The notes under the pieces: model-generated
Database searches by the model: none
Told to the model about the DNA's origin: nothing
The model's input: only the letters and a program-made list of their open reading frames with translations
Translations under genes and position numbers: made by a program
Shown here: positions 1 to 16,932 of the stretch, piece by piece
How the letters are laid out: the number at the start of each line of letters is the position of its first letter
How positions within the stretch are numbered: position 1 is the stretch's first letter
Source of the DNA: Candidatus Latescibacterota bacterium
Lineage (GTDB): Bacteria; Latescibacterota; UBA2968
Direction: 5' to 3'
Assembly: GCA_965207885.1 (NCBI GenBank)
Contig: OZ242311.1
Location: forward strand, 5,760,001 to 5,824,000
DNA: 64,000 nt

Positions 1-916
1 TACTTTCAGTCCATATATTCCGGCCACTTCGCTTAAGGGTGCAATACGTTCTCTCGCAGAAATCGTCGGAAATGCGGCTGTGCCGTTTCCAAATGTTTCG
101 GTTGATAGCCAACACGCATTGACACGAGCACGCACCAACAAGGGAGGGCGCTCGCAGGTTGACACTGTAGCCAGAACATTTGGCTATTTGCACGGTGGTA
201 ATGTCTTCGCTGGCTTGATACGCTTTAGTGACGCAGAAATCACTAAAGAACCGCTACCGCCAAACCAATGGCCACAGTACGATGTCGCTGTTGGTCAGCC
301 CAAGCAGAGCCATACTGCGTTTTATCCTGGAAATAATCAACGCAAATTCTATCACCACCGCCCCGGTGCCACACAGCTTACCGCACCACACGCTGGCATT
401 ACACAAACGAGTAGCGTACAACCTGCACCTCCCGGCACACGCTTTAACTTTACGGTGAACTTTGCAAATCTACGTAGCTCTGAACTCAACTTGCTACTCT
501 ACTGTCTGATGCTCGAAGAACAGGTCACTGTCACGCTAAGTCCAGCGGCACTTGGTCGTGATGAAGCGCAAGGACCTGTCATATTAGAGGGACCCATGCG
601 CCACAAAATGGGAGGTGCCAAACCTCATGGTGCTGGTTCGGTTCACATTCGTATCACCAGGATGGAGTTGCGTACAGATGCGATGGCACGCTACCGGGGT
701 AACGATTCTATTGAAACCTATAAAGCAGAAGATCTTACAAATGAATTCGAAAATCGTACCGCATCATTTCGGAATCGCACCGATCAAACGATGCAAGAAT
801 TACGCGCCATGTTGATCTATTCTCTCGAGGATCCCAGACAGCCGATACATTATCCGACCTATGGATGGTTTCGAAATGGGAACAATGCAGGCACGCAGTT
901 AAAGCCTACAATATAG
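1..916 (+). CDS. CRISPR RAMP superfamily protein (Cas7 group, type III, probably III-D), 5' truncated by window edge
   Basis: Frame is open from base 2: PYIPATSLKGAIRSLAE (RAMP N-terminal motif), RKFYHH, and G-rich loop HKMGGAKPHGAGSV; lies next to a CARF gene and a CRISPR array. Confidence 0.85.
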   Translation, partial: TFSPYIPATSLKGAIRSLAEIVGNAAVPFPNVSVDSQHALTRARTNKGGRSQVDTVARTFGYLHGGNVFAGLIRFSDAEITKEPLPPNQWPQYDVAVGQPKQSHTAFYPGNNQRKFYHHRPGATQLTAPHAGITQTSSVQPAPPGTRFNFTVNFANLRSSELNLLLYCLMLEEQVTVTLSPAALGRDEAQGPVILEGPMRHKMGGAKPHGAGSVHIRITRMELRTDAMARYRGNDSIETYKAEDLTNEFENRTASFRNRTDQTMQELRAMLIYSLEDPRQPIHYPTYGWFRNGNNAGTQLKPTI

Positions 917-1015: not shown

Positions 1016-2287
1016 ATGAAACTGGCGATGTTAGTGACTGTAGGCGTAGGCAGTACTGTTTCAGATGGGATCGTATTCGCTATTCGGCACAGGCGGCCAG
1101 ATTTTGTGATGTTTCTGACTACGTTGCAAAGTGAAGAACTCACCATTCCCAATCTTCTTGAAACACTCAAGTTAGATCCCGAAGCATATCAATGTCGCCG
1201 TGTAGATGACGAAAATGACGTTGAAAAATGTACGTTGGATTTCATCTCGGTGATCCAAAATCTGAAAAACCGGGGATTTGATTCGGAAGACATTGTAGCG
1301 GATTACACATCGGGTACAAAGGCAATGTCGGCAGGACTTGTGGCCGCTGGTCTTGAGGCCGCCCTTGGAGAACTATCTTATATTGCTGGAGAACGCGATG
1401 AGGGCCGTGTTGTCTCGGGAACGGAACGCGCTATATCGCTTGCACCAAACCGATTGAGAGTACGCCGCATTGTAGAACAGGCCATAACGGAGTTCAACTC
1501 CGTTCGGTTTGATACCTGTCTGGACATGCTGAACCAGATCAAAGAATTGATTCGCCTGCAGAGTGTCAGGCAAGCTGTTAATACATTGCAGGCTCTTGCA
1601 TTGGGATACCGCGCCTGGGATCAATTCGATTACACATTGGCCATGTCCGAACTGGATGGACTGACAGGCAATGCACATCTATCCGAATGGGGATTAAAAA
1701 GAAGGCTGGAACGGCACAAAGGTTTTTTATACCGCGTCAAAAATTTCGATTATGGCGTAGAGCGTGCTACAGACTTGTGGAATAGCGCAGAAAGACGCAA
1801 AGCGGAAGGACGTTTTGATGATGCCGTAGCCCGGCTCTATCGGCTAATTGAATATATCGCACAGGTGCGGCTGTTCCGCAATCACAATGGACTAAAAACA
1901 AGTGATCTGGATATAAGCTTGTTGCCCGAATCCCTGCGTGCTTCGTACAAAGAAAAAGCTGGACGATCTGGAAAAATTGAACTCGGGTTATATGAGAGCT
2001 ATGCGTTGTTAAAAGCTCTCGACAATGATCTGGGCCAGTTCTTCATAGCCAAGTATGATGAAACAGAAGAATTAAAAAAAGTATTAGGGCTGCGAAATCA
2101 GTCGATTCTTGCACACGTATTTGGACCTCTATCTCAAAATGGATGTAAAACGGCCCAGTCTTCTGTACGGTCATTGATGGATCAGGCATTCCGGAACTGG
2201 GAAGACACTGCTCGTGAATCTGCTTTTCCAAAACTGAACACATCTCAAGTGATCCCAAGTCTGAATTTATCAAATGGGTTCGGATAA
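1016..2287 (+). CDS. CARF-HEPN CRISPR ancillary ribonuclease, TIGR02710 family (Csm6/Csx1-like)
   Basis: N-terminal LVTVGVG and DYTSGTKAMSAGL CARF motifs; DDAVARLYRLIE; C-terminal HEPN-like RNQSILAH. Confidence 0.85.
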   Translation: MKLAMLVTVGVGSTVSDGIVFAIRHRRPDFVMFLTTLQSEELTIPNLLETLKLDPEAYQCRRVDDENDVEKCTLDFISVIQNLKNRGFDSEDIVADYTSGTKAMSAGLVAAGLEAALGELSYIAGERDEGRVVSGTERAISLAPNRLRVRRIVEQAITEFNSVRFDTCLDMLNQIKELIRLQSVRQAVNTLQALALGYRAWDQFDYTLAMSELDGLTGNAHLSEWGLKRRLERHKGFLYRVKNFDYGVERATDLWNSAERRKAEGRFDDAVARLYRLIEYIAQVRLFRNHNGLKTSDLDISLLPESLRASYKEKAGRSGKIELGLYESYALLKALDNDLGQFFIAKYDETEELKKVLGLRNQSILAHVFGPLSQNGCKTAQSSVRSLMDQAFRNWEDTARESAFPKLNTSQVIPSLNLSNGFG

Positions 2288-2301: not shown

Positions 2302-2328
2302 ATCAGGATGTATTACCCGGCATTGTGG
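2302..2328 (+). repeat. Orphan degenerate CRISPR repeat just after the CARF gene stop
   Basis: ATCAGGATGTATTACCCGGCATTGTGG aligns with the repeat 5' part ATCAGGAAGAATTACCCGCTTATTGGGG. Confidence 0.6.
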
Positions 2329-2641
2329 CCGATCTCAACGACTGGATAGAGGGAGGTTAAAAGAGACTTCATAGTTTAATTCAAGCCAGTGGATGCGACC
2401 CAGAGACGTTTATCAATGTCATGCTGGCAGTTTGAGCGTGTAGCGAACAACGTGCGTGAGGATTACAGGCATTTCCTCATGTGCTGGTGGGTCGCAAATT
2501 TCTAACCTTTTGCAGGAGTGTGTATTATGAACAGAGCCGTGAATGCAATTTTTCATTTTTGGGAGGATTTTGTATGTCAAAATGGCCTGAGTCGCAAACC
2601 GCCTTGTAATTGCTTGCGAGACAGGAAATAACGCAGACGGT
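2329..2641 (+). promoter_or_regulatory. Probable CRISPR leader
   Basis: Non-coding ~310 bp immediately before the first canonical repeat; repeats end in ATTGAAAC and degenerate toward the far end, implying + strand transcription from this side. Confidence 0.7.
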
Positions 2642-4496
2642 ATCAGGAAGAATTACCCGCTTATTGGGGTATTGAAACTTTGGCACTTCGCCAGCACATC
2701 GCTACCATTGCGTTGGGATCAGGAAGAATTACCCGCTTATTGGGGTATTGAAACAAAAAGAGTGGACGGTATTTTGGAACGAATCGGTGCCAGTCAATCA
2801 GGAAGAATTACCCGCTTATTGGGGTATTGAAACTCTGCTATAGCGGTGAAATGAGGGGACGGCAGGGAGGGATATCAGGAAGAATTACCCGCTTATTGGG
2901 GTATTGAAACCGCGTCCAATCAAAAGATCGGACGCCGCAAAATATAGTTAATCAGGAAGAATTACCCGCTTATTGGGGTATTGAAACCTGAGCAGATCGA
3001 TACCAACATACGCGAACTTGAAGGCGCATCAGGAAGAATTACCCGCTTATTGGGGTATTGAAACTTGGACGAGCCTGTTTTGGCTCCAAATGTTACCACC
3101 ATCAGGAAGAATTACCCGCTTATTGGGGTATTGAAACCGGTTGATCTCGTAGATGAGGTTGGTAAGTTCTACCCAATCAGGAAGAATTACCCGCTTATTG
3201 GGGTATTGAAACGTGAAAATTAACTGCCGTTTCTGCTTTCGCTTTTTCAAGACAATCAGGAAGAATTACCCGCTTATTGGGGTATTGAAACCTGGGTATG
3301 CACATCCGACCAGATGATCGGCACTGGGCCTGATCAGGAAGAATTACCCGCTTATTGGGGTATTGAAACTTGCCGCTGCCGTCGGGGTCAATCGCGTTCA
3401 GGGCGATCAGGAAGAATTACCCGCTTATTGGGGTATTGAAACGGTTGCTGCCTGTCCCAGAATCGCCTGGATTGCCGTGCGAATCAGGAAGAATTACCCG
3501 CTTATTGGGGTATTGAAACCAGGTACATGCGCCCGCGCTAAACAAGTTTTCAGCAGATCAGGAAGAATTACCCGCTTATTGGGGTATTGAAACCTGCCTC
3601 GAACTCTGCCATTTTTTCTTCTGAGATTTTTATATCAGGAAGAATTACCCGCTTATTGGGGTATTGAAACTCCTCGTCATCATCCCCAATCCCTGGGGAT
3701 ATTGATGCTATCAGGAAGAATTACCCGCTTATTGGGGTATTGAAACTTTCTCCATCGCCCTGCCACGTAAAATTCGTGTGTTCAAAAATCAGGAAGAATT
3801 ACCCGCTTATTGGGGTATTGAAACTTTTACAGTTTTTGCTACAGCCTGAAATTCTGCCATTATCAGGAAGAATTACCCGCTTATTGGGGTATTGAAACCA
3901 GTCGATGATGGCATAGCGATCCAACGTCGCGGCGTATCAGGAAGAATTACCCGCTTATTGGGGTATTGAAACCTCAATATGATAAATTATGTTGGCCGCA
4001 TCCCAGTATCAGGAAGAATTACCCGCTTATTGGGGTATTGAAACTTGCATAATTGTCCGATCGGGATTTATATTTTTGGATATATCAGGAAGAATTACCC
4101 GCTTATTGGGGTATTGAAACGGTTATCTTTGTGTCTGGTTGATTTTGGCAAATGCTAATCAGGAAGAATTACCCGCTTATTGGGGTATTGAAACTTTTTT
4201 GAGGGCGGGACTTGCTCCGACCGCACAAAGAAATCAGGAAGAATTACCCGCTTATTGGGGTATTGAAACTATCGAAGGATTTGCGCTTAAACATTTCCTT
4301 TCGGGCTTATCAGGAAGAATTACCCGCTTATTGGGGTATTGAAACCGGGGTTGTCTGATTTATGAGGACTGAATTTGTTGTTATCAGGAAGAATTACCCG
4401 CTTATTGGGGTATTGAAACAGATTCTGCTTCTGGGTCATCTTCGAGGTGTTTTTGGGCAATCAGGAAGAATTACCCGCTTATTGGGGTATTGAAAC
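2642..4496 (+). CRISPR. CRISPR array segment 1: 25 identical 37-bp repeats with ~35-42 bp spacers
   Basis: Repeat ATCAGGAAGAATTACCCGCTTATTGGGGTATTGAAAC from 2642 to 4460-4496; TACCC/GGGTA hairpin and ATTGAAAC handle typical of Cas6-processed arrays. Confidence 0.99.
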
Positions 4497-4501
4497 GAGA
4501 A

Positions 4502-6898
4502 GTAGGGTAGGCTGCTGGCGAGTTACCCAAAGGCACTTTTCCATCAGCCCCCCTCCGAACCGGACGTGATAGTTTCCCATCATCCGGCTCTCCAGTAACT
4601 TTCACCGTTTTGAGGTCGGCCCGCCTCGATGGATGTTGATATGACAGCTTTTACAGACGACAAGTGTTTTTCTGCGTCTTGCTGCCATTTTATGTTTCCA
4701 TCTTGGCTTTTTCTTCCTTCCCGGCTTGTCCACATCCGTTAGTTTGCGTATGTGGTGAACTTCTACTTCTTGCCGAGAACCACATAATTCACATTCTGAT
4801 GCCGTTAAGCGTTGTATTAGCTCGCTACGACTCCAGTATGGTTTTATGTCTTTCAGGCCGTCCTTGATTACCGCGTTCTCTGTGTTGCGTATTAAGGGAA
4901 CCCCTCCAAAGTATGCGATTAGGGGCTTTTTACCTTCTCTTTCTACGGTTACTTGTATGCATTTTCGTGGGCCTCTTGGGGTAATTACTTTACCCTTATA
5001 TTTCCTTGCCGTTTTTCTCACTTGCGATTTGTGTTTATTCGCAAGTGTCTTTAGCAGGGACGTTTGTATGACCCATTCCAATTTGCTCAGTCTCCGTATG
5101 TTGTTTGCGAGTTGGTAGTATTGCACAAAGCCTCTATATTCCCTTTGATAGCGGGATATGATGTCAAAGTCGCTGTCCTGTAACAATTGTGGTCGCGCCT
5201 CTGGCTTCCCGTTTCTCATATAGGTATTGCATCTCGCATCACTTACATCTTTGGGGATGTATAAGCCGAGTCTTCCATTAATGGCCCTTTTCTTAATGTA
5301 GCTGTCCATTTGTGTGTTACTGAAATATCCCTTGATTTCGTATCCTAAAAATCTGGCTCTTTCGGTGGTTACGTGGGTTATTAGGGTCTTTTCTTCTGAA
5401 AGTTCGAGCTTCATATCTTGCAGGAATTTCTTTAGAATTGACTTAATTCCCCTTGCTTCCATTTTGGAGCCTACTAATCCTATTAGGAAGTCGTCAGCGT
5501 ATCTTATGTAGTATATTCTTTTGAAATCGGGGTCGTCTTGGAGTGAGCAGGGTATTTTCTGCATCTTCTGTCTATACTCCTTTGCTTCTTCAAATCGACC
5601 TTTCTTTTTCAGGTGATATACTTTGTTAATCAGATACCTGTATTCAGGGTTTTTCTTTCGGCTTTTTCCTTTTGTGAATAGAGATTTGAGGGTGTTTTCA
5701 ACAAATTTATCCAGTCTATCGAGGTAGATATTTGAGAGTATCGGGCTTACGATTCCCCCTTGTGGCGTTCCGCTCAAGGTGGGTGTGTAATTCCAATTCT
5801 CCATATATCCTGCTTTGAGTAGATTGGATATTAACCGCAGAAATCGGTTGTCTCGGATTTTCTCTCGGAGTATTGATAGTAAGATTTGGTGGTCTATATT
5901 ATCGAAGCACCCCTTAATATCTCCTTCGACAAACCATTTCGTTCCGTTCCACTTTTTGACTGCTTGTAATGCCGTGTGACAGCCTTTATTTGGTCGGAAC
6001 CCGTGAGACAAGCTGCTAAATTGCGGTTCATAATACGCTTCTAATATGGAGCGTATTACTTCCTGCACAAGTTTGTCTGTCCACGTAGGAATGCCTAACG
6101 GTCGCATTTTACCGTTTTTCTTTGGTATATGTGTCCGTCTCACTGGAGTCCATCTGAAGCGTTCATAGCGTATTTGTTCTATGATTGCTTTAATTTTCTT
6201 CAGTGACATTCCATCAACGGTTTCTTCCGTTATACCTTTGGTCATTGCGCCTTTGTTGCGTTGAATGCGACTGTAGGCCCGCAGGTATAGATCGGGGTTG
6301 AACATTTGTCGATAAACGTCTTCAATGGGTAATCCTCTTAAACCTCGATTTCGGATGATACCTAATACTGTTTCGGCGTCTCGCATCTCGCGTGCCTCCT
6401 GTATTATTGTATCCAGTTACCTGTTTTCCTTCGCCTTGTGGACGGCTTTCCCGTCCTCTGACTACTATGAAAACTCCGTTACCATAGGACTCGCGTCCCG
6501 TAGGCAATCCCGTGTTTTTCTGTTGTGGTCTGTATTAGTGTGGGTTAGGTAGTCCACTCATTCCTTAAATGAGCTACATTGCTCATCGTTGGCAGTTCCA
6601 AAGGTTATGGGAAAGCATTGGTTAATTTCCCATAAAACTGATACCGGTATCGGACGACTTTCCGGTAGGGCGAAGCGACCGTCCTTCTGGAATTGGACTT
6701 CGGGCAGTTTAGCTCTTACCATACCACACAGGTCTTGCGGAGCAAATGTTTTTGTCGCCTTCTCTACATTCTCCGCTTTACGAATATGCTATTTTCCCTT
6801 TCGCCTTTCGGTTCCGGTTGATTCGTTGACCTATGGACGTTCCTTTGAGTCCATCCTGATTTAGTCAGGAATACCACATCAGACGCTACACGGCGCAC
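4502..6898 (-). mobile_element. Complete group II intron (IIA, LtrB/ML-like) inserted inside a CRISPR spacer
   Basis: Minus strand starts GTGCG at 6898; domain V GAGAGCCGGATGATGGGAAACTATCACGTCCGGTTCGGAGGGG near 4550-4592; ends ...CCTACCCTAC at 4502; removing it restores a 38-nt spacer. Confidence 0.93.
4602..6386 (-). CDS. ltrA: Group II intron reverse transcriptase/maturase with C-terminal HNH endonuclease
   Basis: RPLGIPTWTDKLVQ, GTPQGGIVSPILSNIYL, YIRYADDF, maturase X domain, CELCG...EVHHIRKL...VCKSCHINIH. Confidence 0.95.
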   Translation of the reverse strand: MRDAETVLGIIRNRGLRGLPIEDVYRQMFNPDLYLRAYSRIQRNKGAMTKGITEETVDGMSLKKIKAIIEQIRYERFRWTPVRRTHIPKKNGKMRPLGIPTWTDKLVQEVIRSILEAYYEPQFSSLSHGFRPNKGCHTALQAVKKWNGTKWFVEGDIKGCFDNIDHQILLSILREKIRDNRFLRLISNLLKAGYMENWNYTPTLSGTPQGGIVSPILSNIYLDRLDKFVENTLKSLFTKGKSRKKNPEYRYLINKVYHLKKKGRFEEAKEYRQKMQKIPCSLQDDPDFKRIYYIRYADDFLIGLVGSKMEARGIKSILKKFLQDMKLELSEEKTLITHVTTERARFLGYEIKGYFSNTQMDSYIKKRAINGRLGLYIPKDVSDARCNTYMRNGKPEARPQLLQDSDFDIISRYQREYRGFVQYYQLANNIRRLSKLEWVIQTSLLKTLANKHKSQVRKTARKYKGKVITPRGPRKCIQVTVEREGKKPLIAYFGGVPLIRNTENAVIKDGLKDIKPYWSRSELIQRLTASECELCGSRQEVEVHHIRKLTDVDKPGRKKKPRWKHKMAARRRKTLVVCKSCHINIHRGGPTSKR

Positions 6899-6931
6899 CT
6901 AATGAGGCTTTGGGTAGATCGTTCACACCCA

Positions 6932-7554
6932 ATCAGGAAGAATTACCCGCTTATTGGGGTATTGAAACTTCGATGCGGGAGCGACCAGCGGCTTGAATCT
7001 TAACAACTGATCAGGAAGAATTACCCGCTTATTGGGGTATTGAAACTATTGCGAGAGAAGATGTTCGCAGATCGAAAGATCCATCAGGAAGAATTACCCG
7101 CTTATTGGGGTATTGAAACTCGAGCTTGACGATGCGCTCTTCGTGGTTGGCGAGACGATCAGGAAGAATTACCCGCTTATTGGGGTATTGAAACGCGTCA
7201 AGGTCTCTGCGTATCTGGTCGAAATTGTCCTCGGATCAGGAAGAATTACCCGCTTATTGGGGTATTGAAACAAATATACTGCACACCACAAGCAGAGCAT
7301 CTCAAAAGTGCATCAGGAAGAATTACCCGCTTATTGGGGTATTGAAACCCGCGGACAGCGAGCGCAAAATCGTCGCAGTCGCTTCTGATCAGGAAGGATT
7401 ACCCGCTTACTGGGGTATTGAAACAATAGCTTGCGGATACACACAGCAAACTCGTTGTAATCATCAGGAAGGATTACCCGCTTACTGGGGTATTGAAACG
7501 AAACTGTCTTACTTTTTTACTTCGGGAATGATTTTGGGATCAGGAAAGATTACC
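6932..7554 (+). CRISPR. CRISPR array segment 2: 8 full repeats (last two variant) plus a truncated repeat at 7539
   Basis: Repeats at 6932, 7010, 7083, 7158, 7235, 7312, 7388, 7463; ATCAGGAAAGATTACC fragment at 7539-7554. Confidence 0.97.
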
Positions 7555-7588
7555 TGTTTACAAAAAGAAAAAGGAGAGGAAACAAGTG

Positions 7589-7809
7589 ATGCCACTAATC
7601 GCGATGTCAGGAAGTGATGCCCTGCTCTTTCTCCTATTCTGGTTCCTGGGATGGTTCGCCTCGCCATTGGGGTGGGCCTTATATACCTCACGCTCAAAGT
7701 GCTACGCAGAATCTCTGAAAAAATAGACAGTCGTCGTGTTAAGGAAACTTCTGCTGACCTTTTGGAGGCACTGGCCGCCAAACTCAAAGAGGACAAAAAA
7801 CAACGATAG
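7589..7809 (+). pseudogene. Small membrane protein, apparently frameshifted (or a 52-aa ORF from 7651)
   Basis: RBS GGAGAGG plus ATG at 7589 gives MPLIAMSGSDALLFLL; a shifted frame continues ILVPGMVRLAIGVGLIYLTLKVLRR...KKQR* to 7809. Confidence 0.4.
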
Positions 7810-7932
7810 TATGCAGTGTAAAATTGAAATACAGAAAGGAATCTCCTTTTAGTAGTTATTTCCCAGAGTATTCAACTGCTTAGACACTCAGACACCTTCA
7901 TTGTCCGAACTCTATCCGATAAGGGTAATATC

Positions 7933-10062
7933 ATGAATAAAATAGTCTCAAGAATCTCCAGATACTTCAGAAGATGGTATGATGAAATCAAGTTGCAGCA
8001 AGTCCTTAAAGAATGCTGTCACGTAGCGCGCGAAGGATACCGGATTGCAAGTGCCAACCTTGATGAAATCAAGATCACTATAGACGGAGAAGTTTCGAAA
8101 TTGAAATCACACCTGGCAACTTTGAATAATGAGAATATCCAAACAGACCACATTGAACAACAGATACAAAAACAACTACAACAAGTGGTGTCAGAACTCG
8201 GCTCTTTGCACAAAAGCCAAGTGCGCCTTCTGGAAGAGAAACACTCACAAATGGACAAATTTTCAATTGCCCTCTTTGGTCGCACACTGGCTGGTAAATC
8301 AACATTGATGGAAATTTTGACCAAAGGCGATGGTTCATCCATCGGAAAGGGAAACCAACGCAATACCCGAGATGTGCGTAGCTACGACTGGAAAGGACTT
8401 AAAATCACTGATGTCCCCGGCGTAGCTGCATCTGACGATGAAGGCCGTGAGGACGAAGAAAAAGCATTCGAGGCGGCTGTGCAGTCGGACCTGGTGCTTT
8501 TCCTCATCACCAACGATGCGCCCCAGGACTCAGAAGCAAGGTGCCTCGCACGCGTGCGATCACAAGGCAAGTCGATTCTGGGTATCTTGAATTTTAAAGA
8601 GGGTCTCAACAATGAGGACGATATACGAATTTTCTTGCGAGATAACTGGTTCAAAAATGATCGGCAGGATATCCACGACATCGTTCAACAGTTCCACGAA
8701 TCTGTGAACAAATATAGCCCGGGGAATCGGATCAGGTTCCTTTATACCCATTTGCTATCGAGATTCCTATCTCAACAGCCGCAGTACAAATCGCACCAGA
8801 ATAATTTGGAACGCGCAAGCCGCTTCGACTATGTCGAACAGCAAATTATATCGGAGGTAATTAACCGGGGAAGATTCCTGAAATGGAAGAGCTTTATCGA
8901 CATTTCCGTAGTTCCAATGCTTGAATTTAGCGATAAATTATTGGAGTTTAGTGCCCAGAACTCATCCAGTGGTAGAATTTTCCTTGGCAAAAGGGACCAG
9001 ACCCAATCATGGTCTGATGGATTTAGCAAAAGTGGCAAAGAACGCATTGATACGTTTATAAAAAAAGAAATGAACTTGCTGCGTGATGAAATTCCGGGAT
9101 TTGCGGAGACCTATTATGACCGATCTAATGCTGGCGATCGCTGGAACCGCTTAGTCAAAAAGCAAGGCATAGAGCGGAAAGCAAAAAAACTTGCTGAACA
9201 GATCCAGAATGAATGTAAATCTGAACTGTCAGAGATTGCACGACAACTTAAATTTGCACTGAATTCCGTCGGTAAATTTGCTGATGATCGCAAAATTAGC
9301 ATGGATTCTATATTCGATACAAAACGCGCCTGGAATTGGGGGACTACAATTCTTTCGGGTGGTCTTGGTATTGCTGCTCTCATTCTTGGTAGCGGTCCTA
9401 TCGGCTGGGTTGCGGCAGCAGTTGCGGGATTAGGGCGCTTGATATCATGGCTTTTAGGTGACCGCGAAAAAAAAGCGAGAAAGCAACGCAAAAAACTCGA
9501 AAAGATGCTCAATAGCGAAGTCAACAAGATAGAAAGTAATATTCGAAAACAGCTCAATGATTGGTTTCAGGGTGTACTGAAAAATCAAGTCGCTGTCCTT
9601 ATCAAAGACCTCTCTACTACCACATCGAATCTCTTCAAGCTGGCAGATGTACAAAGAACTCTGGCCTGGGCACTCAACAAAGGACAGAAACGTCTCCACC
9701 GCGATCTACTCAATGAAGCACTCGATCAACTTGGACAAAAAGATAAAGGGAACCTCATATTAGATATAGCGCGAGTACCAGGACTGGCAATTATGTTATT
9801 GATAGAGCCTAAAACTACATTTCCAAAGGACGTACGCAGGAATTTAGAAAAAATACTTGGAGAAAAGGTTTGGTTCGTAGTCAATACCCGTAACAAAACC
9901 TCAATTCTGGCGCAGGCTATTGGGCACGACTGTGATCGAAGCAAAGTTCGTATCAAATCAAAAATTCAAGTTGCCCATGTTCCGGTAGGAGACCTTAATG
10001 CAGTTGGTATTTCTCGAATCAGACTAGCGCAACAACTGACCGAACTCCATGTGATGAAGTAA
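7933..10062 (+). CDS. Dynamin-like GTPase, LeoBC-like (Eleos defence system)
   Basis: N-terminal coiled coil, P-loop FGRTLAGKST, TRDVRSY, ITDVPG, hydrophobic paddle GGLGIAALILGSGPIGW; paired with a LeoA-like gene. Confidence 0.75.
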   Translation: MNKIVSRISRYFRRWYDEIKLQQVLKECCHVAREGYRIASANLDEIKITIDGEVSKLKSHLATLNNENIQTDHIEQQIQKQLQQVVSELGSLHKSQVRLLEEKHSQMDKFSIALFGRTLAGKSTLMEILTKGDGSSIGKGNQRNTRDVRSYDWKGLKITDVPGVAASDDEGREDEEKAFEAAVQSDLVLFLITNDAPQDSEARCLARVRSQGKSILGILNFKEGLNNEDDIRIFLRDNWFKNDRQDIHDIVQQFHESVNKYSPGNRIRFLYTHLLSRFLSQQPQYKSHQNNLERASRFDYVEQQIISEVINRGRFLKWKSFIDISVVPMLEFSDKLLEFSAQNSSSGRIFLGKRDQTQSWSDGFSKSGKERIDTFIKKEMNLLRDEIPGFAETYYDRSNAGDRWNRLVKKQGIERKAKKLAEQIQNECKSELSEIARQLKFALNSVGKFADDRKISMDSIFDTKRAWNWGTTILSGGLGIAALILGSGPIGWVAAAVAGLGRLISWLLGDREKKARKQRKKLEKMLNSEVNKIESNIRKQLNDWFQGVLKNQVAVLIKDLSTTTSNLFKLADVQRTLAWALNKGQKRLHRDLLNEALDQLGQKDKGNLILDIARVPGLAIMLLIEPKTTFPKDVRRNLEKILGEKVWFVVNTRNKTSILAQAIGHDCDRSKVRIKSKIQVAHVPVGDLNAVGISRIRLAQQLTELHVMK

Positions 10063-10081
10063 CTCAGAAAGGAATCATTTA

Positions 10082-11818
10082 ATGAAAGAAATACATATCC
10101 ATTCATATACAAAAAAAGGAGAGTGTCTGCTTGAGAGAGCAAAACAGGTTCTCCAAGATGCACCTGTCGATAAGGTACGGAACTTTGCACAACGGGTTCC
10201 AAGAGGAATGGCAACTTCTGAAGAAGCCGTTCAGGTAGTCTTTGCCGGTCAATACAGTGCAGGTAAGTCTTCAATTCTCAAGGCAATGACGGGACAAGAA
10301 GATATCGAGATAGGAGCTGGGATTACGACTCGACGGACACAACAGTTTGACTGGAATGGAATCAGAGTAGTGGATACGCCGGGTGTCCATACGGAGTTAC
10401 GACCCGACCATGACAAAATAACGTACGGGGCAATCAGTAAAGCCGACCTCCTGATCTTTGTTATTACCAATGAATTATTTGACTCCCATATAGCAACACA
10501 TTTTAGAAAACTTGCAATTGATCGGGATAAAGCCCATGAAATGCTGTTGGTTGTGAACAAGATGCAGCGATGTGACAAGGGAAATACATCAGCGGCTCAG
10601 GATGTAATTCGGGAAGACCTTCGAAAAGATCTATTGCCCTTCTCTCCAGAACAACTTCGTATATCTTTCTTGGATGCTGAAGACGCTCTCAAGATCCGCA
10701 CAGAGCAGGACGAAGAATACCGCAGAATCTACCATAAAAGAAGTGGTTTTGATGCCTTCATCGATAATTTCAATGCGTTTATTAAAGAAAAGGAATTAAT
10801 CGCACGTTATACAACACCGCTCTACACCCTCGAACAAGTACTACAAGAGGCCCTCGCAGTCGAGCCGAGCGATGACCCTGATGTGGATGCCCTACAAGAG
10901 TTATTAATTCAGCAAAGACGCGCATTATTGGATAGTAAAGCACAGATTTCTCAATCAGTAAAAAATAAAGTCCAACAGACAACAAACAAGATTCGGGAGG
11001 AAGGTCGCAATGTTGCTGATCTGATTCGTGGAAATTCGGACTTTGAGAAAGTTGATCGGGAATTAACGGCTGCCCAAGAGCGCGTTCAAGAATATGTGGA
11101 TTCATTGACGGAACTCGTTCAAGAAACAGTTGAAGAGCATATTAGCGATCTCGCTGAGCGGATAGAGCAAATCGCGGAGAGCGAACTCGCCAAAGAGTTA
11201 CTATCGAGGCTTATAGAAAGACTCCAAGGTCTCAATGTTGATCCAGAGACTCTATCTAAGGTAAAAAAGGGCGCAGATTTCGCCAGCCGATTTGGGAAAT
11301 TCCTCGTTAAGAACTCGTTTAATCCTACGACCTCGACATTTTCCGGATTGTTCAAACTCCACCAGTATTCGGGTACAGCAATGCACGGCATGGTCAAAAA
11401 TATAGGACATTTCTTAGGAAAGTCCTTTAAGCCTTGGGAAGCAGTAAAATGGACGCGTACAATCGCAAATGCTGGTCGAGTTTTGAGCGTAGTAGGCACT
11501 GTTCTAACCATTGTGTTTCAAATTAAAGAAGACGCCGATGCTGCTAATTTAGAACAGGAATTGCGCGAAAGCCGAACTGCTGTAAGGGCGGGATTTAGTG
11601 AGGCCGCCAGTGCAATTGAACTCCATTTTGATGAAGCAACCAACACTTATGTAGCCAAAACCATTGGTCAGCGTCTCGAAGAGGTAGATAAGCAACTTGA
11701 GGAACTCAGAGATATGAAGCAATCTCGTAGCGATCTCTTTCAACAACTCAATGGCCTATTAGAAGATACGAAGGAGCTTATCTCGGAAATGCATGTGTCG
11801 TATAACCCCCATGAATGA
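10082..11818 (+). CDS. leoA: Dynamin-like GTPase, LeoA-like (Eleos defence system)
   Basis: FAGQYSAGKSS, GITT, VDTPG, VVNKM G-motifs, FKPWEAVK motif, coiled-coil C-terminus; 578 aa. Confidence 0.75.
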   Translation: MKEIHIHSYTKKGECLLERAKQVLQDAPVDKVRNFAQRVPRGMATSEEAVQVVFAGQYSAGKSSILKAMTGQEDIEIGAGITTRRTQQFDWNGIRVVDTPGVHTELRPDHDKITYGAISKADLLIFVITNELFDSHIATHFRKLAIDRDKAHEMLLVVNKMQRCDKGNTSAAQDVIREDLRKDLLPFSPEQLRISFLDAEDALKIRTEQDEEYRRIYHKRSGFDAFIDNFNAFIKEKELIARYTTPLYTLEQVLQEALAVEPSDDPDVDALQELLIQQRRALLDSKAQISQSVKNKVQQTTNKIREEGRNVADLIRGNSDFEKVDRELTAAQERVQEYVDSLTELVQETVEEHISDLAERIEQIAESELAKELLSRLIERLQGLNVDPETLSKVKKGADFASRFGKFLVKNSFNPTTSTFSGLFKLHQYSGTAMHGMVKNIGHFLGKSFKPWEAVKWTRTIANAGRVLSVVGTVLTIVFQIKEDADAANLEQELRESRTAVRAGFSEAASAIELHFDEATNTYVAKTIGQRLEEVDKQLEELRDMKQSRSDLFQQLNGLLEDTKELISEMHVSYNPHE

Positions 11819-11834
11819 CTTGAGATTGTCTTAA

Positions 11835-12172
11835 GTCAAGAAAGGATTACCCGACTACTGGGGTATTGAAACTCATCACCGAGACGTTCTTTGGTTGAAT
11901 ACTTCCCTTCGAATCAGGAAAGATTACCCGACTACTGGGGTATTGAAACGTATCTGTCACCATTACGATATAGTTGTTTCCATCGGCAATCAGGAAGGAT
12001 TACCCGCTTACTGGGGTATTGAAACCAGACCTCAGCAGCTTCGTTTGCATCAACGACGATTATCAGGAAGGATTATCCGACTACTGGGGTATTGAAACAT
12101 GTCCGCCTCGCAGAAGTTCATCTCGTTCATCTTCCGAAGATCAGGAAGAAATTACCCGACTACTGGGGTATT
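11835..12172 (+). CRISPR. CRISPR array segment 3: 5 variant repeats (first 5'-degenerate, last lacking GAAAC), 4 spacers
   Basis: Repeats at ~11835, 11913, 11989, 12062, 12140, mostly of form ATCAGGAAGGATTACCCGACTACTGGGGTATTGAAAC. Confidence 0.95.
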
Positions 12173-12291
12173 TACCATTTTTAGGGTTGTGCTTGTAGTG
12201 TAGCCTCAGATTCTCTATCTTTTGAATAGATCTTAATACAGAATACAGAGGATGTGCGTCCAACCACGATATGCTATGGGAGGAGATGCCA

Positions 12292-12555
12292 ATGAACCAG
12301 CTAACATTAAGCGGATTTGACAAAGAATTGACCGATAGAATCCGGCATTTCGCAAACCAGGAGGGTATTTCGCTAAATCAAGCCGCGTTGAGACTTCTGC
12401 GCGTTGGGGCCGGTCTCAAGCAATCAAAGGATAGCGGCGACACCGTTGGATCTTCCCTGGACCATCTAATTGGAACCTGGACGGTCGAGGAAGCTGAGGT
12501 ATTGAATAATGCCGTAAAAGAATTGGAACAAATTGACGAGTCTATGTGGAAATGA
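12292..12555 (+). CDS. Antitoxin (ribbon-helix-helix, FitA/VapB-like)
   Basis: MNQLTLSGFDKEL...GISLNQAALRLL, DHLIGTWT; ATGA overlap with the PIN toxin. Confidence 0.8.
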   Translation: MNQLTLSGFDKELTDRIRHFANQEGISLNQAALRLLRVGAGLKQSKDSGDTVGSSLDHLIGTWTVEEAEVLNNAVKELEQIDESMWK

Positions 12556-12950
12556 AAATTCTCCTTGACACCAATGCGTATTCACATCTGAAGCGAGGGC
12601 ATCGCAGGGTTGCGGCGTTAGTACGCATGTCCGAGGAAATTTTCCTGTCAGCTATTATCATTGGCGAATTGCTCTACGGCTTTCGGCAAGGCTCGCGCAT
12701 TGACCGGAATATTGAGGAACTTAAAGCCTTCCTCAACAACCCCTATGTCACATTTGTACCTATAAGTTTCGCAACAGCCGAACATTACGCGCAGATTGCA
12801 ATGTCGTTGAGAACCAAGGGGCGTCCCATCCCGTCAAACGACATTTGGATCGCTGCTCAAGCAATGGAGACAGGTGCCAATCTCGTTTCGTCTGATCAGC
12901 ATTTTTCAGAAATTGATGGTCTCGCGTGGACATACGTCTCGACTGAATAA
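12552..12950 (+). CDS. vapC: VapC PIN-domain toxin
   Basis: ILLDTNAY, GELLYG, IPSNDIWIAAQA, LVSSDQHF. Confidence 0.93.
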   Translation: MKILLDTNAYSHLKRGHRRVAALVRMSEEIFLSAIIIGELLYGFRQGSRIDRNIEELKAFLNNPYVTFVPISFATAEHYAQIAMSLRTKGRPIPSNDIWIAAQAMETGANLVSSDQHFSEIDGLAWTYVSTE

Positions 12951-12978
12951 CATTTTCCTTTTCTAACAAAAATGAATC

Positions 12979-13233
12979 ATGACAAAGCCAAAACTATATG
13001 AAGAAGTGGCAATAGCGCGCAACATACCGGAAGAAAATCTAAAACAGGGTGATGTTGCTGTCGTGGTCGAATATGTACCGCATCCTACGGGTGGAGAAGA
13101 AGGAGCAATTTTAGAGATTTTTAATGCCATTGGCGAATCCGTCGCTGTGGTCACAGTGCCTATCTCTGCGATTAAATCGCTACATGCTGATCAAGTACTG
13201 ATGGTGCGTGAGAGAACGCCTGCAAAATTTTAG
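12979..13233 (+). CDS. DUF4926-like small protein
   Basis: LYEEVAIARNIPEENLKQGDVAVVVE...LEIFNAIGESVAVVTVP pattern. Confidence 0.75.
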   Translation: MTKPKLYEEVAIARNIPEENLKQGDVAVVVEYVPHPTGGEEGAILEIFNAIGESVAVVTVPISAIKSLHADQVLMVRERTPAKF

Positions 13234-13349
13234 ATCAGGAAGGATTACCCGACTACTGGGGTATTGAAACCTTTCGCTTGACTAATAATAATATAATATA
13301 AAACCCTTCCGAATCAGGAAGGATTACCCGACTACTGGGGTATTGAAAC
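13234..13349 (+). CRISPR. CRISPR array segment 4: two variant repeats, one AT-rich spacer
   Basis: ATCAGGAAGGATTACCCGACTACTGGGGTATTGAAAC at 13234 and 13313. Confidence 0.93.
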
Positions 13350-13360
13350 TGTGCCTGGAT

Positions 13361-13394
13361 GTGCATTTTTGCACGGATGCGTGCATTTCTGCAC
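13361..13394. promoter_or_regulatory. Tandem GTGCA-N4-TGCAC palindromes, putative sigma54 enhancer (UAS)
   Basis: GTGCATTTTTGCAC (13361) and GTGCATTTCTGCAC (13381), 20 bp apart, ~110-140 bp upstream of a -24/-12 element. Confidence 0.6.
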
Positions 13395-13499
13395 GCCTGT
13401 TTTCCTCTGGTGAACGCCTATTTGAGATCTTTTTGCAAAAAAAACCTCGAAAAAGGAACAAAAAAAGAAAATCCTCATTTTTTTGAGGATTTTTTTCTT

Positions 13500-13515
13500 T
13501 GGCACGCTTTTTGCA
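13500..13515 (+). promoter_or_regulatory. Sigma54 (-24/-12) promoter upstream of CAPP-cas1-cas2
   Basis: TGGCACGCTTTTTGCA matches TGGCAC-N5-TTGCW. Confidence 0.75.
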
Positions 13516-13531
13516 TATAAATAGGGCGTTC

Positions 13532-13569
13532 GTCAGGAAGGATTACCCGATTTATTGGGATCGTGAAAT
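13532..13569 (+). repeat. Orphan degenerate CRISPR repeat
   Basis: GTCAGGAAGGATTACCCGATTTATTGGGATCGTGAAAT resembles the variant repeat. Confidence 0.8.
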
Positions 13570-13606: not shown

Positions 13607-13701
13607 TTGGTTGAAATTAAACCGCCAAAAAGAGTAACATAAGCCACAGGTGTCCCCCACATGTGGTTATATTTTTCTCTAAAAAAGAAAGGAATCTCCC
13701 C

Positions 13702-15630
13702 ATGACAACCCCTGCCATTGAACAGTCGTCTCCCACATCTCTGGTAGATACCCTCTGCGAAAAAGCACAGGTGCTATTAGAACAAAACAATATAGATGGC
13801 GTGGAGACATTGGCTTCGGAAGCCTGTGCGCGCGATCCGGCGTGCAATCGCGCACATCAATTGATGCTCCGCGTAGCCCTCATCCGAGACGAACAGGACA
13901 AAGCACAAACATTGCTCAATCGGTGGCGCGATTTGCCGGTAGATGATGCATTTGGTGAATGGGGTGTACTCGCAGAAGAAATGAACGACATACAGTCAGC
14001 CGTTGAAATCTATCAGGCGCACCTATCTCAGTGCCCTGACGATGCCAAATCCCTATTTGGACTGGCAATGCTACACGCAGACCGCAATGAAACGGGCCTC
14101 GCGCAATCGCGCTTGCAAACCCTCATCCAGCACCATGCAGACCATATAGAGGGCATCTTTGAACTCGCCCGCCTGTACGAAGAAGACGGCATGATGGGCC
14201 TCGCCCAAGAACTCTACGCACGGGTGCTCGAACTCGATCCGGACCATGCGGGCGCACTTGCGGGTAAACAACTCGTCGGCGCACAATTGCAAACATCCCA
14301 AACCTTACCAGATGCAACCATCAAAAATCACCCCGATAGTGCCGCCCTGATCCTCAGGCTATTTGCCGCGCGAAAAGACGTGTACGCACGCCAATGGATC
14401 GATGAAGACGGAAAAACCGGCTATGTCCCCGTGCGCGAACCCCTCACAGAAGACGCGATCCAATCCCACCTCCAGGGAGATACAACTGTAGGCGTCTATC
14501 CAATTTTTGACCGGGACAAAGCACAATTTTTGGCCCTGGATATCGACATAAAAAAAGAAGCCCTCAACACAGCGCAGCAAAACAACACCTTAATGGATGC
14601 GTTGCGCGAACAAGTATGCAAAGACATCCGGCGGGTCTGCGCGGGCTTCGCCTCCCTCAACCTCCCTGTTCACATCGAAGACAGCGGAAACAAAGGCGCG
14701 CATATATGGCTCTTCTTTGAAAAACCCATCCGCGCCTGCGACCTCCGCGCATTTGGTCGTGCTTTTGTAAAGCGATTTGGCCCAGCATCAGAAGATTTGC
14801 AGTGGGAGTGGTTTCCCAAACAAGACGCCGTTGGGGAAGATGAACTGGGCAACCTGATCAAACTACCACTCGGCATCCACCGCAAAACAGGACGACGCGC
14901 GTTATTTATCGACACAGAAGGACACGCGCTCGCAGATCAAGATCGGGTATTGTGTGACATCAAACCCATAAACACACAGGCTTATGACCATGCGGTCTCC
15001 CGCTTGGGCGGAGGAGAGACCCACACGCCCCTGAAACAAGTTGATCTGAAAAAAGCATTTCCAGAATTTCAACCCCTTATGCAAGGCTGTGCAGTCATTC
15101 GCGCACTCACAGAAAAAGCCTTTGCAACCGCCCATCTGGTACACATCGAACGCCATGTTTTGAAATGCGTATTCGGGCATCTCGACGACAAGGGACGCGC
15201 CTTCTTACACGCGGTAATTGGCGCGTGTGCAGATTACAAAGCCGAAGTAACCGATTATCAGATCGAACGCCTGCACCCGCATCCCATTGGCTGTCCGAAA
15301 ATCCGCAAACACCTGCCCGACCTCATTGAAACCGTCCCCTGCAACTGCGAATTTGACCTGCCAGAAGGCGGGTATCCCTCTCCCTTGCTACATATCGACC
15401 CGGCATTTACCGCTGGCATGGGACGTGTGGATCAACCGCAAAACCGCGAAATCGTAGATCGCTACATCACACTGCGCCAGCAAGCCGCACAGGTAATGGC
15501 CGACCTATCGCGTACAGAAGATGAAATGCGCGACATATTGCGCGACCGCAAAGGCAAAATCTCCACAGGCGTCTGGGTAGTCACAGCGGATGACGCGGGA
15601 CGATTGCAAATAGGCATTGAGGCGGTGTAA
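13702..15630 (+). CDS. CRISPR-associated primase-polymerase (CAPP): TPR + AEP + Cys-rich C-terminal domain
   Basis: TPR repeats; ALDIDI, EDSGNKGAHIWLFF, FPKQD, GNLIKLPLG AEP motifs; C-terminal Cys cluster; directly upstream of cas1-cas2; start inferred from RBS. Confidence 0.88.
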   Translation: MTTPAIEQSSPTSLVDTLCEKAQVLLEQNNIDGVETLASEACARDPACNRAHQLMLRVALIRDEQDKAQTLLNRWRDLPVDDAFGEWGVLAEEMNDIQSAVEIYQAHLSQCPDDAKSLFGLAMLHADRNETGLAQSRLQTLIQHHADHIEGIFELARLYEEDGMMGLAQELYARVLELDPDHAGALAGKQLVGAQLQTSQTLPDATIKNHPDSAALILRLFAARKDVYARQWIDEDGKTGYVPVREPLTEDAIQSHLQGDTTVGVYPIFDRDKAQFLALDIDIKKEALNTAQQNNTLMDALREQVCKDIRRVCAGFASLNLPVHIEDSGNKGAHIWLFFEKPIRACDLRAFGRAFVKRFGPASEDLQWEWFPKQDAVGEDELGNLIKLPLGIHRKTGRRALFIDTEGHALADQDRVLCDIKPINTQAYDHAVSRLGGGETHTPLKQVDLKKAFPEFQPLMQGCAVIRALTEKAFATAHLVHIERHVLKCVFGHLDDKGRAFLHAVIGACADYKAEVTDYQIERLHPHPIGCPKIRKHLPDLIETVPCNCEFDLPEGGYPSPLLHIDPAFTAGMGRVDQPQNREIVDRYITLRQQAAQVMADLSRTEDEMRDILRDRKGKISTGVWVVTADDAGRLQIGIEAV

Positions 15631-15631
15631 T

Positions 15632-16633: not shown

Positions 16634-16650
16634 ATGTAGAGACCAATACA

Positions 16651-16932
16651 ATGCTCGTGGTCGTAGCCTACGACATAGCGGACAAAAGCCGATTGCGGCG
16701 GGTGATGAAACTCATGGAAAACTACGGATCGCGCCGACAGAAAAGCGTTTTTGAATGCAATCTGAATGAGCGTCGGTTTCTCGCATTGAGGTCCAAAATG
16801 TCGGAATTGATTGACCCGGAAGACGATCGCATCTGTTATTATCATCTATGTGCCGCATGCGAAAAGCGGGTTGAAGGCATATCCGAGCGCGAACATCCCA
16901 TCCCAAAACGCGAAGATTATGTGATTGTGTGA
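16651..16932 (+). CDS. cas2: CRISPR-associated protein Cas2
   Basis: VVVAYDIAD, YGSRRQKSVFEC, DRICYYHLC. Confidence 0.97.
   Translation: MLVVVAYDIADKSRLRRVMKLMENYGSRRQKSVFECNLNERRFLALRSKMSELIDPEDDRICYYHLCAACEKRVEGISEREHPIPKREDYVIV

Follow-up and report, generated by a model that had tools for sequence, protein, structure and literature searches.

Genes between the repeats of a type III-D CRISPR array in a sponge-associated Latescibacterota bacterium

How do whole genes come to lie between the repeats of a CRISPR array, and what do the repeats do to them once they are there? The question is raised by a locus of a sponge-associated Latescibacterota bacterium (genome G000, a single closed contig of 6.23 Mb), studied here in a window of 64,000 nucleotides (G000:C1:5760001-5824000). 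In what follows, the window means this whole stretch, G-numbers denote genomes, L-numbers their loci and X-numbers public sequencing runs; sponge and marine metagenomes are among the runs that contain sequence of the window. The locus is a single type III-D CRISPR-Cas system, whose array is read on the plus strand toward the genes for a TPR-PrimPol protein (CAPP), Cas1 and Cas2, and whose repeats enclose a group II intron, a 4.3-kb Eleos block and a VapBC toxin-antitoxin block with a DUF4926 gene. The original prediction, made from the letters of the window, had proposed that the array may capture genes as giant spacers, possibly by CAPP-Cas1-Cas2, or that it may be a favoured landing site from whose pre-crRNA Cas6 frees defence mRNAs. 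With a probability of about 0.6 we favour another reading, namely that insertions are tolerated in the old part of the array toward the trailer, and that its repeats are recombination substrates which shuffle accessory modules.

According to this reading, new DNA would arrive by ordinary routes: retrohoming of a group II intron, transposition of insertion sequences (IS) in relatives, and microhomology-mediated illegitimate joining in the case of Eleos. Blocks between repeats would then be bordered by 37-bp direct homologies, present also at up to three places of the locus, and recombination between these could excise or shorten a block, move it or exchange it for another, and go as far as taking out the entire CRISPR-Cas locus. 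As cargo, Eleos, VapBC and a DUF6883-DUF4926 pair would represent the typical passenger content of a defence island lying beside an immune locus, and not spacers. Type III CRISPR RNAs (crRNAs) are cut by Cas6 at their 5' side and trimmed at their 3' side, so that a long insert need not inactivate the neighbouring units and would presumably be tolerated. Both this tolerance and the recombination mechanism are inferred. For the two gene blocks of the window, the junctions, a pseudogene, the synteny with other species and the single origin of a cassette family all argue for ordinary illegitimate joining followed by repeat-mediated rearrangement, and not for integration by Cas1-Cas2-CAPP.

Anatomy of the array

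The array, its junctions and the pattern among relatives were read directly from the sequences, and the elements of the array are as follows.

2302-2338, plus strand: degenerate repeat, 14 nt past the Csx1 stop codon
2339-2641, plus strand: leader, 303 nt, single copy in the window
2642-4496, plus strand: array segment A with 25 repeats, all identical and of the derived form; its spacers measure 35-42 nt
6932-7499, plus strand: array segment B, 8 repeats, the last two of an intermediate variant with 2 changes relative to the leader-side form
7539-7556, plus strand: stump of a repeat (its first 18 nt), which lacks a hairpin and borders the Eleos block on the left
11836-12098, plus strand: array segment C, 4 ancestral or intermediate repeats with 8, 5, 2 and 5 changes relative to the leader-side form, spacers of 36-40 nt
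12140-12172, plus strand: 3'-eroded repeat with one inserted base, last 5 nt missing, no 3' handle
13234-13349, plus strand: array segment D, 2 repeats equal to the genus-wide consensus, 4 changes relative to the leader-side form
13350-13531, plus strand: T183 trailer element, conserved at 181-185 nt, with two GTGCA(n5)TGCAC palindromes and terminator hairpins
13532-13569, plus strand: degenerate terminal repeat, followed by a TTGACA-type promoter-like site of the adaptation operon

The 37-nt repeat is present in 39 full copies in the window, all on the plus strand and none on the minus strand, and across the 6.23 Mb of the genome all 39 of 39 matches to the repeat family fall within this locus. 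The family spans 2642 to 13349, with the degenerate copies at 2302 and 13532 in addition, and the short intervals between consecutive full repeats (n=35) measure 35-42 nt. Constant repeats with unique spacers of similar length, one leader, a degenerate repeat at the far end and adjacent cas genes identify the structure as a CRISPR array. The repeat ends in ATTGAAAC and is predicted to fold into a 5-bp hairpin followed by an 8-nt tail, consistent with transcription of the plus strand and cutting by Cas6. The leader is 83-91 % conserved ahead of the main array in 7/7 relatives tested. These relatives are kin and therefore not independent, so that several of the counts given here and below stand for few events.

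The 31 identical leader-side repeats deviate from the genus consensus at 4 positions, and three repeats carry 2 of these changes; the leader-side repeats are derived from the consensus form in two steps. Such a pattern of drift is expected if each new unit inherits whatever changes the first repeat has acquired. Progressive drift along 2642-13569, as originally described, is real across the segments but not strictly monotonic, since the repeat at 11989 is of the intermediate type and stands out of order among neighbours of the ancestral type. The degenerate repeat described 14 nt behind the CARF gene was found as stated, and it is kept in 6/6 relatives of the same genus whose locus has both Csx1 and the main array. 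In L034, whose leader comes after Cas2, the copy was not found.

Could the window hold several independent arrays with leaders of their own near accessory genes, or an artefact of assembly across repeats? Multiple arrays around cas genes are common, and relatives do carry small repeat clusters upstream of cas6 and after cas2. Nevertheless, we consider this very improbable. No leader-like sequence precedes the later segments in the window, where segments C and D directly follow gene ends, and a separate leader per segment was rejected, the leader being single-copy; segments A and B are split just by an intron inside one spacer. On the plus strand between the leader and 13379 the only terminator-like sites are three weak ones in the intron antisense, none lies within 6932-13378, and the first good ones are found in the T183 element after the last repeat, so that the terminal element with its terminator comes only behind segment D. 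The view that this is one array therefore stands.

The assembly could likewise be checked. In addition to the closed 6.23-Mb contig, a 4402-nt contig of run X1 spans 7470-11871 with 0 differences and bridges both Eleos junctions. X1 may be the sample of origin, and hence counts as a second assembly and not as an independent sample. In runs X6 and X7, which belong to other studies, the Eleos block is present at 95-98 % identity, with three contigs of X7 jointly covering 7539-11871 and the cover of X6 reaching from 7539 to 11464, and the same Eleos junctions were seen again in these two studies. There is no sign of mis-assembly at these junctions.

The T183 element could act both as array terminator and as a regulator-binding site for the adaptation operon, judging from its sequence. 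It contains a strong hairpin with T runs on both sides; behind it come a repeat, in some cases degenerate, and the promoter-like site of CAPP. Related elements occur in L027 (10113-10293), L021 (11589-11773), L029 (reverse strand) and L023 (12630-12830); no Rfam family matches T183.

Origin of the inserted blocks

Three blocks interrupt the array of the window. The functions of their genes are all assigned by family membership alone, and the inferences on junctions come mostly from alignments between species about 10 % apart.

4501-6898, minus strand: group II intron (Rfam RF00029, 68.3 bits, at 4502-4592 of the minus strand)
4602-6386, minus strand: open reading frame (ORF) for a reverse transcriptase (RT), maturase and HNH protein (Pfam RVT_1, Intron_maturas2, HNH)
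7589-7809, plus strand: gene of a small membrane protein, frameshifted by 5 nt inserted at 7656
7831-7846, plus strand: remnant of a CAPP-like ribosome-binding site, 16 nt identical to the ribosome-binding region before CAPP (E 1.9e-5 in a small comparison)
7933-10062, plus strand: LeoBC (PADLOC 1.2e-89, profile 18-570 of 601)
10082-11818, plus strand: LeoA (PADLOC 9.5e-114, profile 7-555 of 559)
11819-11845, plus strand: native Eleos 3' flank and right junction, by alignment with the repeat-free loci of G007 and G020
12173-12270, plus strand: E75, conserved 5' element (~75 nt) of the toxin-antitoxin block, with an imperfect palindrome
12271-12555, plus strand: VapB-like gene, a 94-codon ORF without family match, with a 10-nt overlap with VapC
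12546-12950, plus strand: VapC (PIN, 7.9e-19)
12979-13233, plus strand: DUF4926 gene (26.8 bits against a Pfam cut-off of 29.1; confirmed by orthologues)

The first interruption arrived by its own mechanism. Domain V-VI RNA, an RT-maturase ORF and mobile copies identify it as a group II intron, which sits within one spacer, leaving 4 nt and 33 nt of it (interval 4497-6931, 2435 nt). A second copy at G000:C1:3116208-3118610 (3.12 Mb) is 99.96 % identical, which points to a recent retrohoming event, and the element is probably active. The original prediction had described the gene blocks of the array as co-oriented without mentioning this interruption; the description holds for the Eleos and VapBC blocks, but the intron lies on the minus strand, so that not all blocks share one orientation.

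The second block contains the Eleos operon (7933-11818), a system formerly named after dynamins. Its neighbouring LeoA and LeoBC dynamin-like GTPase genes, which define it as Eleos, are both full length relative to the PADLOC profiles and match Pfam MMR_HSR1, Dynamin_N and DLP_helical. Repeat-free Eleos loci are present in G020, G011 and G007 at 74-86 % identity, and alignment with them places the right junction within a microhomology, GAAGG(G)ATT (8-9 nt), through which the native flank merges into the repeat about 9 nt inside it. The T-rich native 3' flank (in G007 and G020 a T-run at the junction and past it) is replaced by repeat in the window. The block had been said to start right after a truncated repeat and to have its last stop codon 16 nt before the next one; the start is as described, whereas the LeoA stop lies 17 nt before repeat-like sequence and the true junction about 9 nt inside the repeat.

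On the left side of this block, the 18-nt repeat stump together with the TTTAC that follows it resembles the degenerate and likewise truncated repeat that G020 has ahead of its CAPP promoter, and the remnant at 7831-7846 suggests that the upstream part of the block derives from a promoter and untranslated-region unit of the CAPP type. Between the two lies the broken membrane-protein gene, which is intact at a non-CRISPR site in G019, and whose 5 extra nt are absent in X6 and X7. The microhomology junction, the repeat stump, the frameshifted gene and the ribosome-binding remnant thus point to a composite generated by illegitimate joining.

One contig of X7 (38 nt on its shorter side, likeness threshold 90) joins 13608 to 7570, a weak hint at a related strain with a CAPP-type promoter before the small ORF.

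Small hydrophobic ORFs of about 50-70 codons recur in or near trailer-end spacer positions, namely in L029 (reverse strand 9052-9219, G020), L028 (8923-9075, G008), L021 (14614-14812, G019) and the window (7589-7809). They have no family match and are possibly small membrane toxins; a comparison of seven small ORFs of unassigned family with PHROGs returned 0 families. In G020, 6 nt separate the stop of the 55-codon ORF from the degenerate repeat behind it. The idea that a CreTA-like RNA guards such ORFs was rejected, as 38 spacers gave no match to the cassettes.

The third block is inherited and has been eroded. A PIN toxin gene preceded by a small overlapping antitoxin gene identifies VapBC, and the E75 element ahead of it is a probable VapBC promoter and operator, a function read from its sequence. 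E75 stands before VapB in the window, G019 and G015, and before DUF6883 in G012. The repeat in front of it retains its 3' end in G019, G015 and G012, with the next element 0 nt behind; in the window, a small deletion has taken the last bases of this repeat (12140-12172). VapB and VapC are found at the same place in G019 (complete), in G015 (VapC residues 1-101) and in G013 (VapC residues 1-33), and the DUF6883 partner which relatives possess is deleted in the window, where only its last ~9 nt are left. The simplest history would be an ancestral E75-VapB-VapC-DUF6883-DUF4926 block between repeats that was eroded differently in each line. At its right end, the DUF4926 stop abuts the repeat at 13234 (0 nt), as had been noted before. 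In X1, loose ends at 12555 and 12972 disclose a coexisting strain in which VapB is joined to the DUF6883-DUF4926 unit, and which hence carries different cargo at the same site in the same sample.

The DUF6883-DUF4926 unit has moved as well. It is repeat-flanked in 5 genomes, at three locus positions; these are before CAPP (the window), after Cas2 (G012) or beside the glycosyltransferase gene (G005/G006), and in a mini-array upstream of cas6 (G019), and the left junction of the cassette is identical in G006 and G019. In a tree of DUF4926, the 5 repeat-flanked copies form one clade (support 83/88), and eight 'home' copies, located between a PhyH-like gene and mnmA, form the other (84/84). The single clade argues for one origin followed by relocation, and repeated independent capture of DUF4926 was rejected on this ground.

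The 'home' gene lies between the PhyH-like gene and mnmA in 8 relatives (L018-L020, L056-L061). At the corresponding site of G000 (G000:C1:1372030-1372150) the gene is missing and just ATG AGC TAA remains, and in every genome except G010 DUF4926 is either at the 'home' site or linked to DUF6883, not both. A 'cut-and-paste' between the two sites was considered and dropped, the tree giving two paralogue lineages for which reciprocal loss is simpler.

Rearrangements and exact borders in relatives

What would direct 37-bp repeats at several sites of a locus produce by recombination? The deletions and relocations among relatives are what would be anticipated. G006 has the left flank genes, then repeat, cassette and repeat, and then the right flank gene (glycosyltransferase), with no CRISPR-Cas locus, and the loss of the whole locus (~28 kb) would fit a deletion between repeats such as G019 carries at both locus ends. 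The adaptation modules of relatives are in decay: G008 is without CAPP-cas1-cas2, G019 (L021 12145-14322) lacks cas1 and the first 17 codons of cas2, and G015 (L022 15129-16688), which has no cas2, carries a deletion fusion of CAPP (residues 1-427) with Cas1 (residues 237-338); in L034, G001, G016 and G018 they are found elsewhere in the locus. Cargo varies too, comprising an IS4-like transposase gene (G019), an IS-bearing 4.2-kb mix (L034) and ~3 kb of assorted ORFs (G015). The notion that the array is a place where genes land is borne out, as relatives carry other cargo between repeats of the same family.

Relatives also hold conserved non-coding elements of ~115, 183 and 230-290 nt between repeats. 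The ~115-nt element, with GC-rich inverted repeats, lies between repeats or after cassettes in L021 (10503-10616 and 11811-11925), L055 (~8208-8300), L025, L026 and L028, and G019 has three copies; a structured RNA and a miniature mobile element are candidates for its nature. A search of Rfam (E<=1) with the G019 stretch that contains T183, M115 and E75 gave just weak matches far below gathering scores.

Among 16 loci, 522 of the 542 inter-repeat intervals measure 24-50 nt, none falls within 51-180 nt, and the remaining 20 extend from 181 to 12505 nt. A sloppy length ruler of Cas1 was rejected for this bimodality. Of the long inserts, 8 were scored, and each has 64 % or more of its array's repeats ahead of it and so lies on the trailer side, a bias that fits old age or tolerance where few spacers lie downstream.

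Several observations nevertheless weigh against the recombination reading. No recombination event was directly observed, and no strain pair with common flanking spacers and a filled versus an empty site was found. In almost every case read, the distance from a gene end to the following repeat is 0-27 nt, and of about 9 coding inserts other than transposons, 7 run in the direction of the array. In G019, G015 and G012, E75 follows the 3' end of a repeat at a distance of 0 nt, which is more exact than random insertion into a 39-nt spacer would predict, and the DUF4926 stop abuts the next repeat in 5/5 genomes of the repeat-flanked clade, a border which amounts to one inherited junction. In G020, the 55-codon ORF begins with its ATG 0 nt after a repeat. 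In G013, insert 1 (L023 9617-10783, 1167 nt) lies between two perfect repeats and consists of a dockerin-like ORF and the first 175 codons of a phage portal protein, the latter ending exactly at a perfect repeat. Insert 2 of G013 (L023 11205-11852, 648 nt), also between perfect repeats, is filled almost exactly by a paralogous dockerin-like ORF, with 14 nt between the upstream repeat and its start and 1 nt between its stop and the downstream repeat. A plain recombination model leaves unexplained the precision of several borders, the portal fragment and the nearness of gene ends to the next repeat. Exact borders of this kind fit either cuts at repeat borders, as by Cas1, or selection for processing.

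Cuts by Cas1 would be at work if CAPP-Cas1-Cas2 at times integrated kilobase DNA at a repeat in a casposase-like manner with duplication of the repeat, the inserts then drifting trailerward. This appears distinctly unlikely to us, although a number of features speak for it. The portal fragment between perfect repeats in G013, which matches a 382-aa PF04860 protein at 97 % identity, breaks off precisely at the border and had no other copy in 21 genomes of the genus, may keep the idea of Cas1 capture alive; the borders of the block from E75 to DUF4926 are exact, the two repeats flanking VapBC in G019 have common changes unseen elsewhere in that array, all long inserts are on the trailer side, and CAPPs make and displace long DNA strands in vitro, according to the available text of PMC8211822. 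The same text reports priming, strand displacement and integration of short prespacers only. Moreover, an insert length continuous with a prespacer ruler is not seen in the bimodal intervals (0/542 at 51-180 nt), and complete repeats bound both inserts of G013 and nearly so the block from E75 to DUF4926, but not Eleos, whose junctions are a microhomology fusion and a repeat stump. The intron of the window, the IS of G019 and possibly the IS-bearing block of L034 used mechanisms of their own, and the cassette families are of single origin and were rearranged afterwards. Even insert 1 of G013 may be composite, since its dockerin-like ORF is nearly restricted to that array: the family has only 3 database matches, two of them the copies in the array and the third a protein of a 1.7-kb contig. 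The 382-aa portal protein had no relative among the viral contigs compared. The capture of both blocks of the window as giant spacers, as originally considered, is thus not supported, in view of the composite nature of Eleos with its microhomology, stump and frameshifted gene, of the VapBC block being syntenic in 3 other species with different deletions, of the single origin of the repeat-flanked DUF4926 copies and of the missing continuous tail of interval lengths.

Selection for processing would instead make the array a platform of cassettes that are expressed within the pre-crRNA from the leader promoter, with Cas6 cutting the flanking repeats and releasing mRNAs. Here Cas6 may stabilise mRNA 3' ends, and the repeats would be processing or insulation sites of a defence and toxin operon, the arrival of the cassettes being a separate matter. 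Cas6/Csy4 is used in synthetic operons, and the locus has a cas6 gene and a repeat with the usual 5-bp hairpin and 8-nt 3' tail. The plus strand is free of terminator-like sites over 6932-13378, the short distances from gene ends to repeats leave no room for own terminators, a promoter could not fit ahead of some inserts (G013 with 14 and 16 nt, G020 with 0 nt), the native T-rich 3' flank of Eleos was swapped for repeat, and most coding inserts share the orientation of the array. We still regard this as unlikely. The repeats upstream of both cassettes of the window are damaged (7539 without hairpin, 12140 without 3' handle), making a clean 5' release impossible there; a conserved element of its own precedes VapBC, a pseudogene is among the cassette genes, and the intron antisense with its 3 weak terminator-like sites stands between leader and cassettes. 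Repeats adjacent to DUF4926 decay in genomes without Cas6, which shows merely that constraint is absent there.

Both ideas can be combined into one. The array would then double as a gene-cassette platform in which phage or chromosomal kilobase DNA is put in spacer positions by CAPP-Cas1-Cas2 or by a repeat-specific reaction, moved among three repeat sites and expressed from the pre-crRNA, the messages being cut out by Cas6, that is, an integron-like system made of CRISPR parts. We deem this a shade more doubtful than release by Cas6 taken by itself, and continue with the reading of insertion by ordinary routes followed by recombination at repeats.

Known systems and neighbouring features

In the parts of PMC4524480 available, long 'spacers' of at least 100 nt in arrays of E. 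coli, P. aeruginosa and S. thermophilus are mostly transposon-like. Such arrays share with the present one the kilobase DNA between repeats, and the intron of the window and the IS4-like transposase of G019 are exactly this case. In contrast, most cargo here is not self-mobile (Eleos, VapBC, DUF6883-DUF4926, the dockerin-like ORFs and the portal fragment), and the blocks are conserved and rearranged across species. Recombination between repeats is an accepted route of array deletions in the available portions of PMC4524480 and PMC4390879, and the deletions and relocations described above likewise end at repeats; the units moved or lost are, however, genes, and in G006 a CRISPR-Cas locus of ~28 kb, and thus go beyond spacers. 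In the text of PMC8616872 as available, it is proposed that viral DNA may enter arrays by recombining with spacers or with repeat units that stand alone. Recombination with solitary repeats and recombination between spacer and protospacer would both give foreign DNA bordered by repeats or spacers, and either could explain the portal fragment of G013, whereas the junction of Eleos differs in being a microhomology.

With integrons, to which the original prediction likened it, the locus shares cassettes between hairpin repeats, with one promoter upstream, an integrase gene adjacent and one cassette at three sites; co-orientation extends to 7 of about 9 coding inserts. Yet attI and attC are absent, the borders being CRISPR repeats, stumps or a microhomology junction, and some cassettes have a promoter of their own (the putative one upstream of VapBC). 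No integrase family, tyrosine recombinase or IntI, was found among the annotated ORFs of 1-29 kb or 10 kb upstream, although no dedicated search for IntI was made. Lacking IntI and attC, the array is not an integron.

VapBC pairs also sit among cas genes in the cas cassettes of Sulfolobales, where they are thought to help retain loci (PMC4390879, available part). The likeness lies in VapBC modules inside CRISPR-Cas loci, which here occupy positions between array repeats and there among cas genes. The known cases of CreTA and CreR are mainly from systems with DNA-binding effectors. Mini-arrays of this type have degenerate repeats next to promoters and small toxin-like genes, as far as the accessible text goes (10.1101/2024.10.29.618823), and resemble the present locus in this; however, no spacer or pseudo-spacer matches a cassette gene or promoter here, and among 38 spacers compared with the whole genome, including those adjacent to cassettes, none matches cassette genes.

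In the literature covered, which did not include the long-spacer list in Table S4 of PMC4524480, we found no account of a defence operon, a toxin-antitoxin pair or other non-transposon gene cargo inside arrays. Arrays interrupted by transposons are known; apparently new are cargoes of other kinds (defence, toxin and phage-fragment) that, from species to species, have been moved or lost at the repeats. Should the recombination reading be true, CRISPR repeats would in general serve to shuffle accessory defence genes and to shed entire CRISPR-Cas loci, which would bear on the assembly of defence islands and also on the annotation of arrays, because array finders split arrays of this kind. The bolder combination of capture and release, if true, would be a new way of gene capture and expression. 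In either case, the locus offers substrates for tests, with intact adaptation genes, Cas6, defined junctions and natural variants.

Upstream of the window lies the type III-D operon with Cas6, CARF-RelE, Cas10, Csx10/Cas5 and several Cas7 (annotated in L037), and downstream of Cas2 there are housekeeping genes (glycosyltransferase, sulfatases). The gene calls made originally (LeoBC, LeoA, PIN/VapC, DUF4926, CAPP, Cas1, Cas2) all stand, and the genes on the two sides of the array are the following.

2-916, plus strand: 3' portion of a Cas7/Csm3-like gene, which is last among the operon's effector genes (PADLOC Csm3/Cas7_IIId matches)
1016-2287, plus strand: Csx1/Csm6-type CARF-HEPN gene (PADLOC CARF_HEPN 7e-86; Pfam Csm6 HEPN 4.5e-28)
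13663-15630, plus strand: TPR-PrimPol (CAPP), likely start at the ATG at 13703
15617-16633, plus strand: Cas1, adaptation operon (13663-16932)
16651-16932, plus strand: Cas2, adaptation operon

A scan of metagenome contigs with the repeat pattern returned 0 stretches, and no ordinary spacer is common to the window and 9-10 relatives (350 spacers or spacer-position stretches), with only the conserved long elements matching.

Some spacers match the genome of the host itself. The fifth spacer (2988-3027) is identical over 40/40 nt to the bacterium's own dnaA (G000:C1:332556-332595) in the same sense as the mRNA, so that its crRNA would not pair with the message, and the spacers at 2911-2950 and 2834-2873 have partial exact self matches of 31 and 25 nt, respectively, in ORFs without family match.

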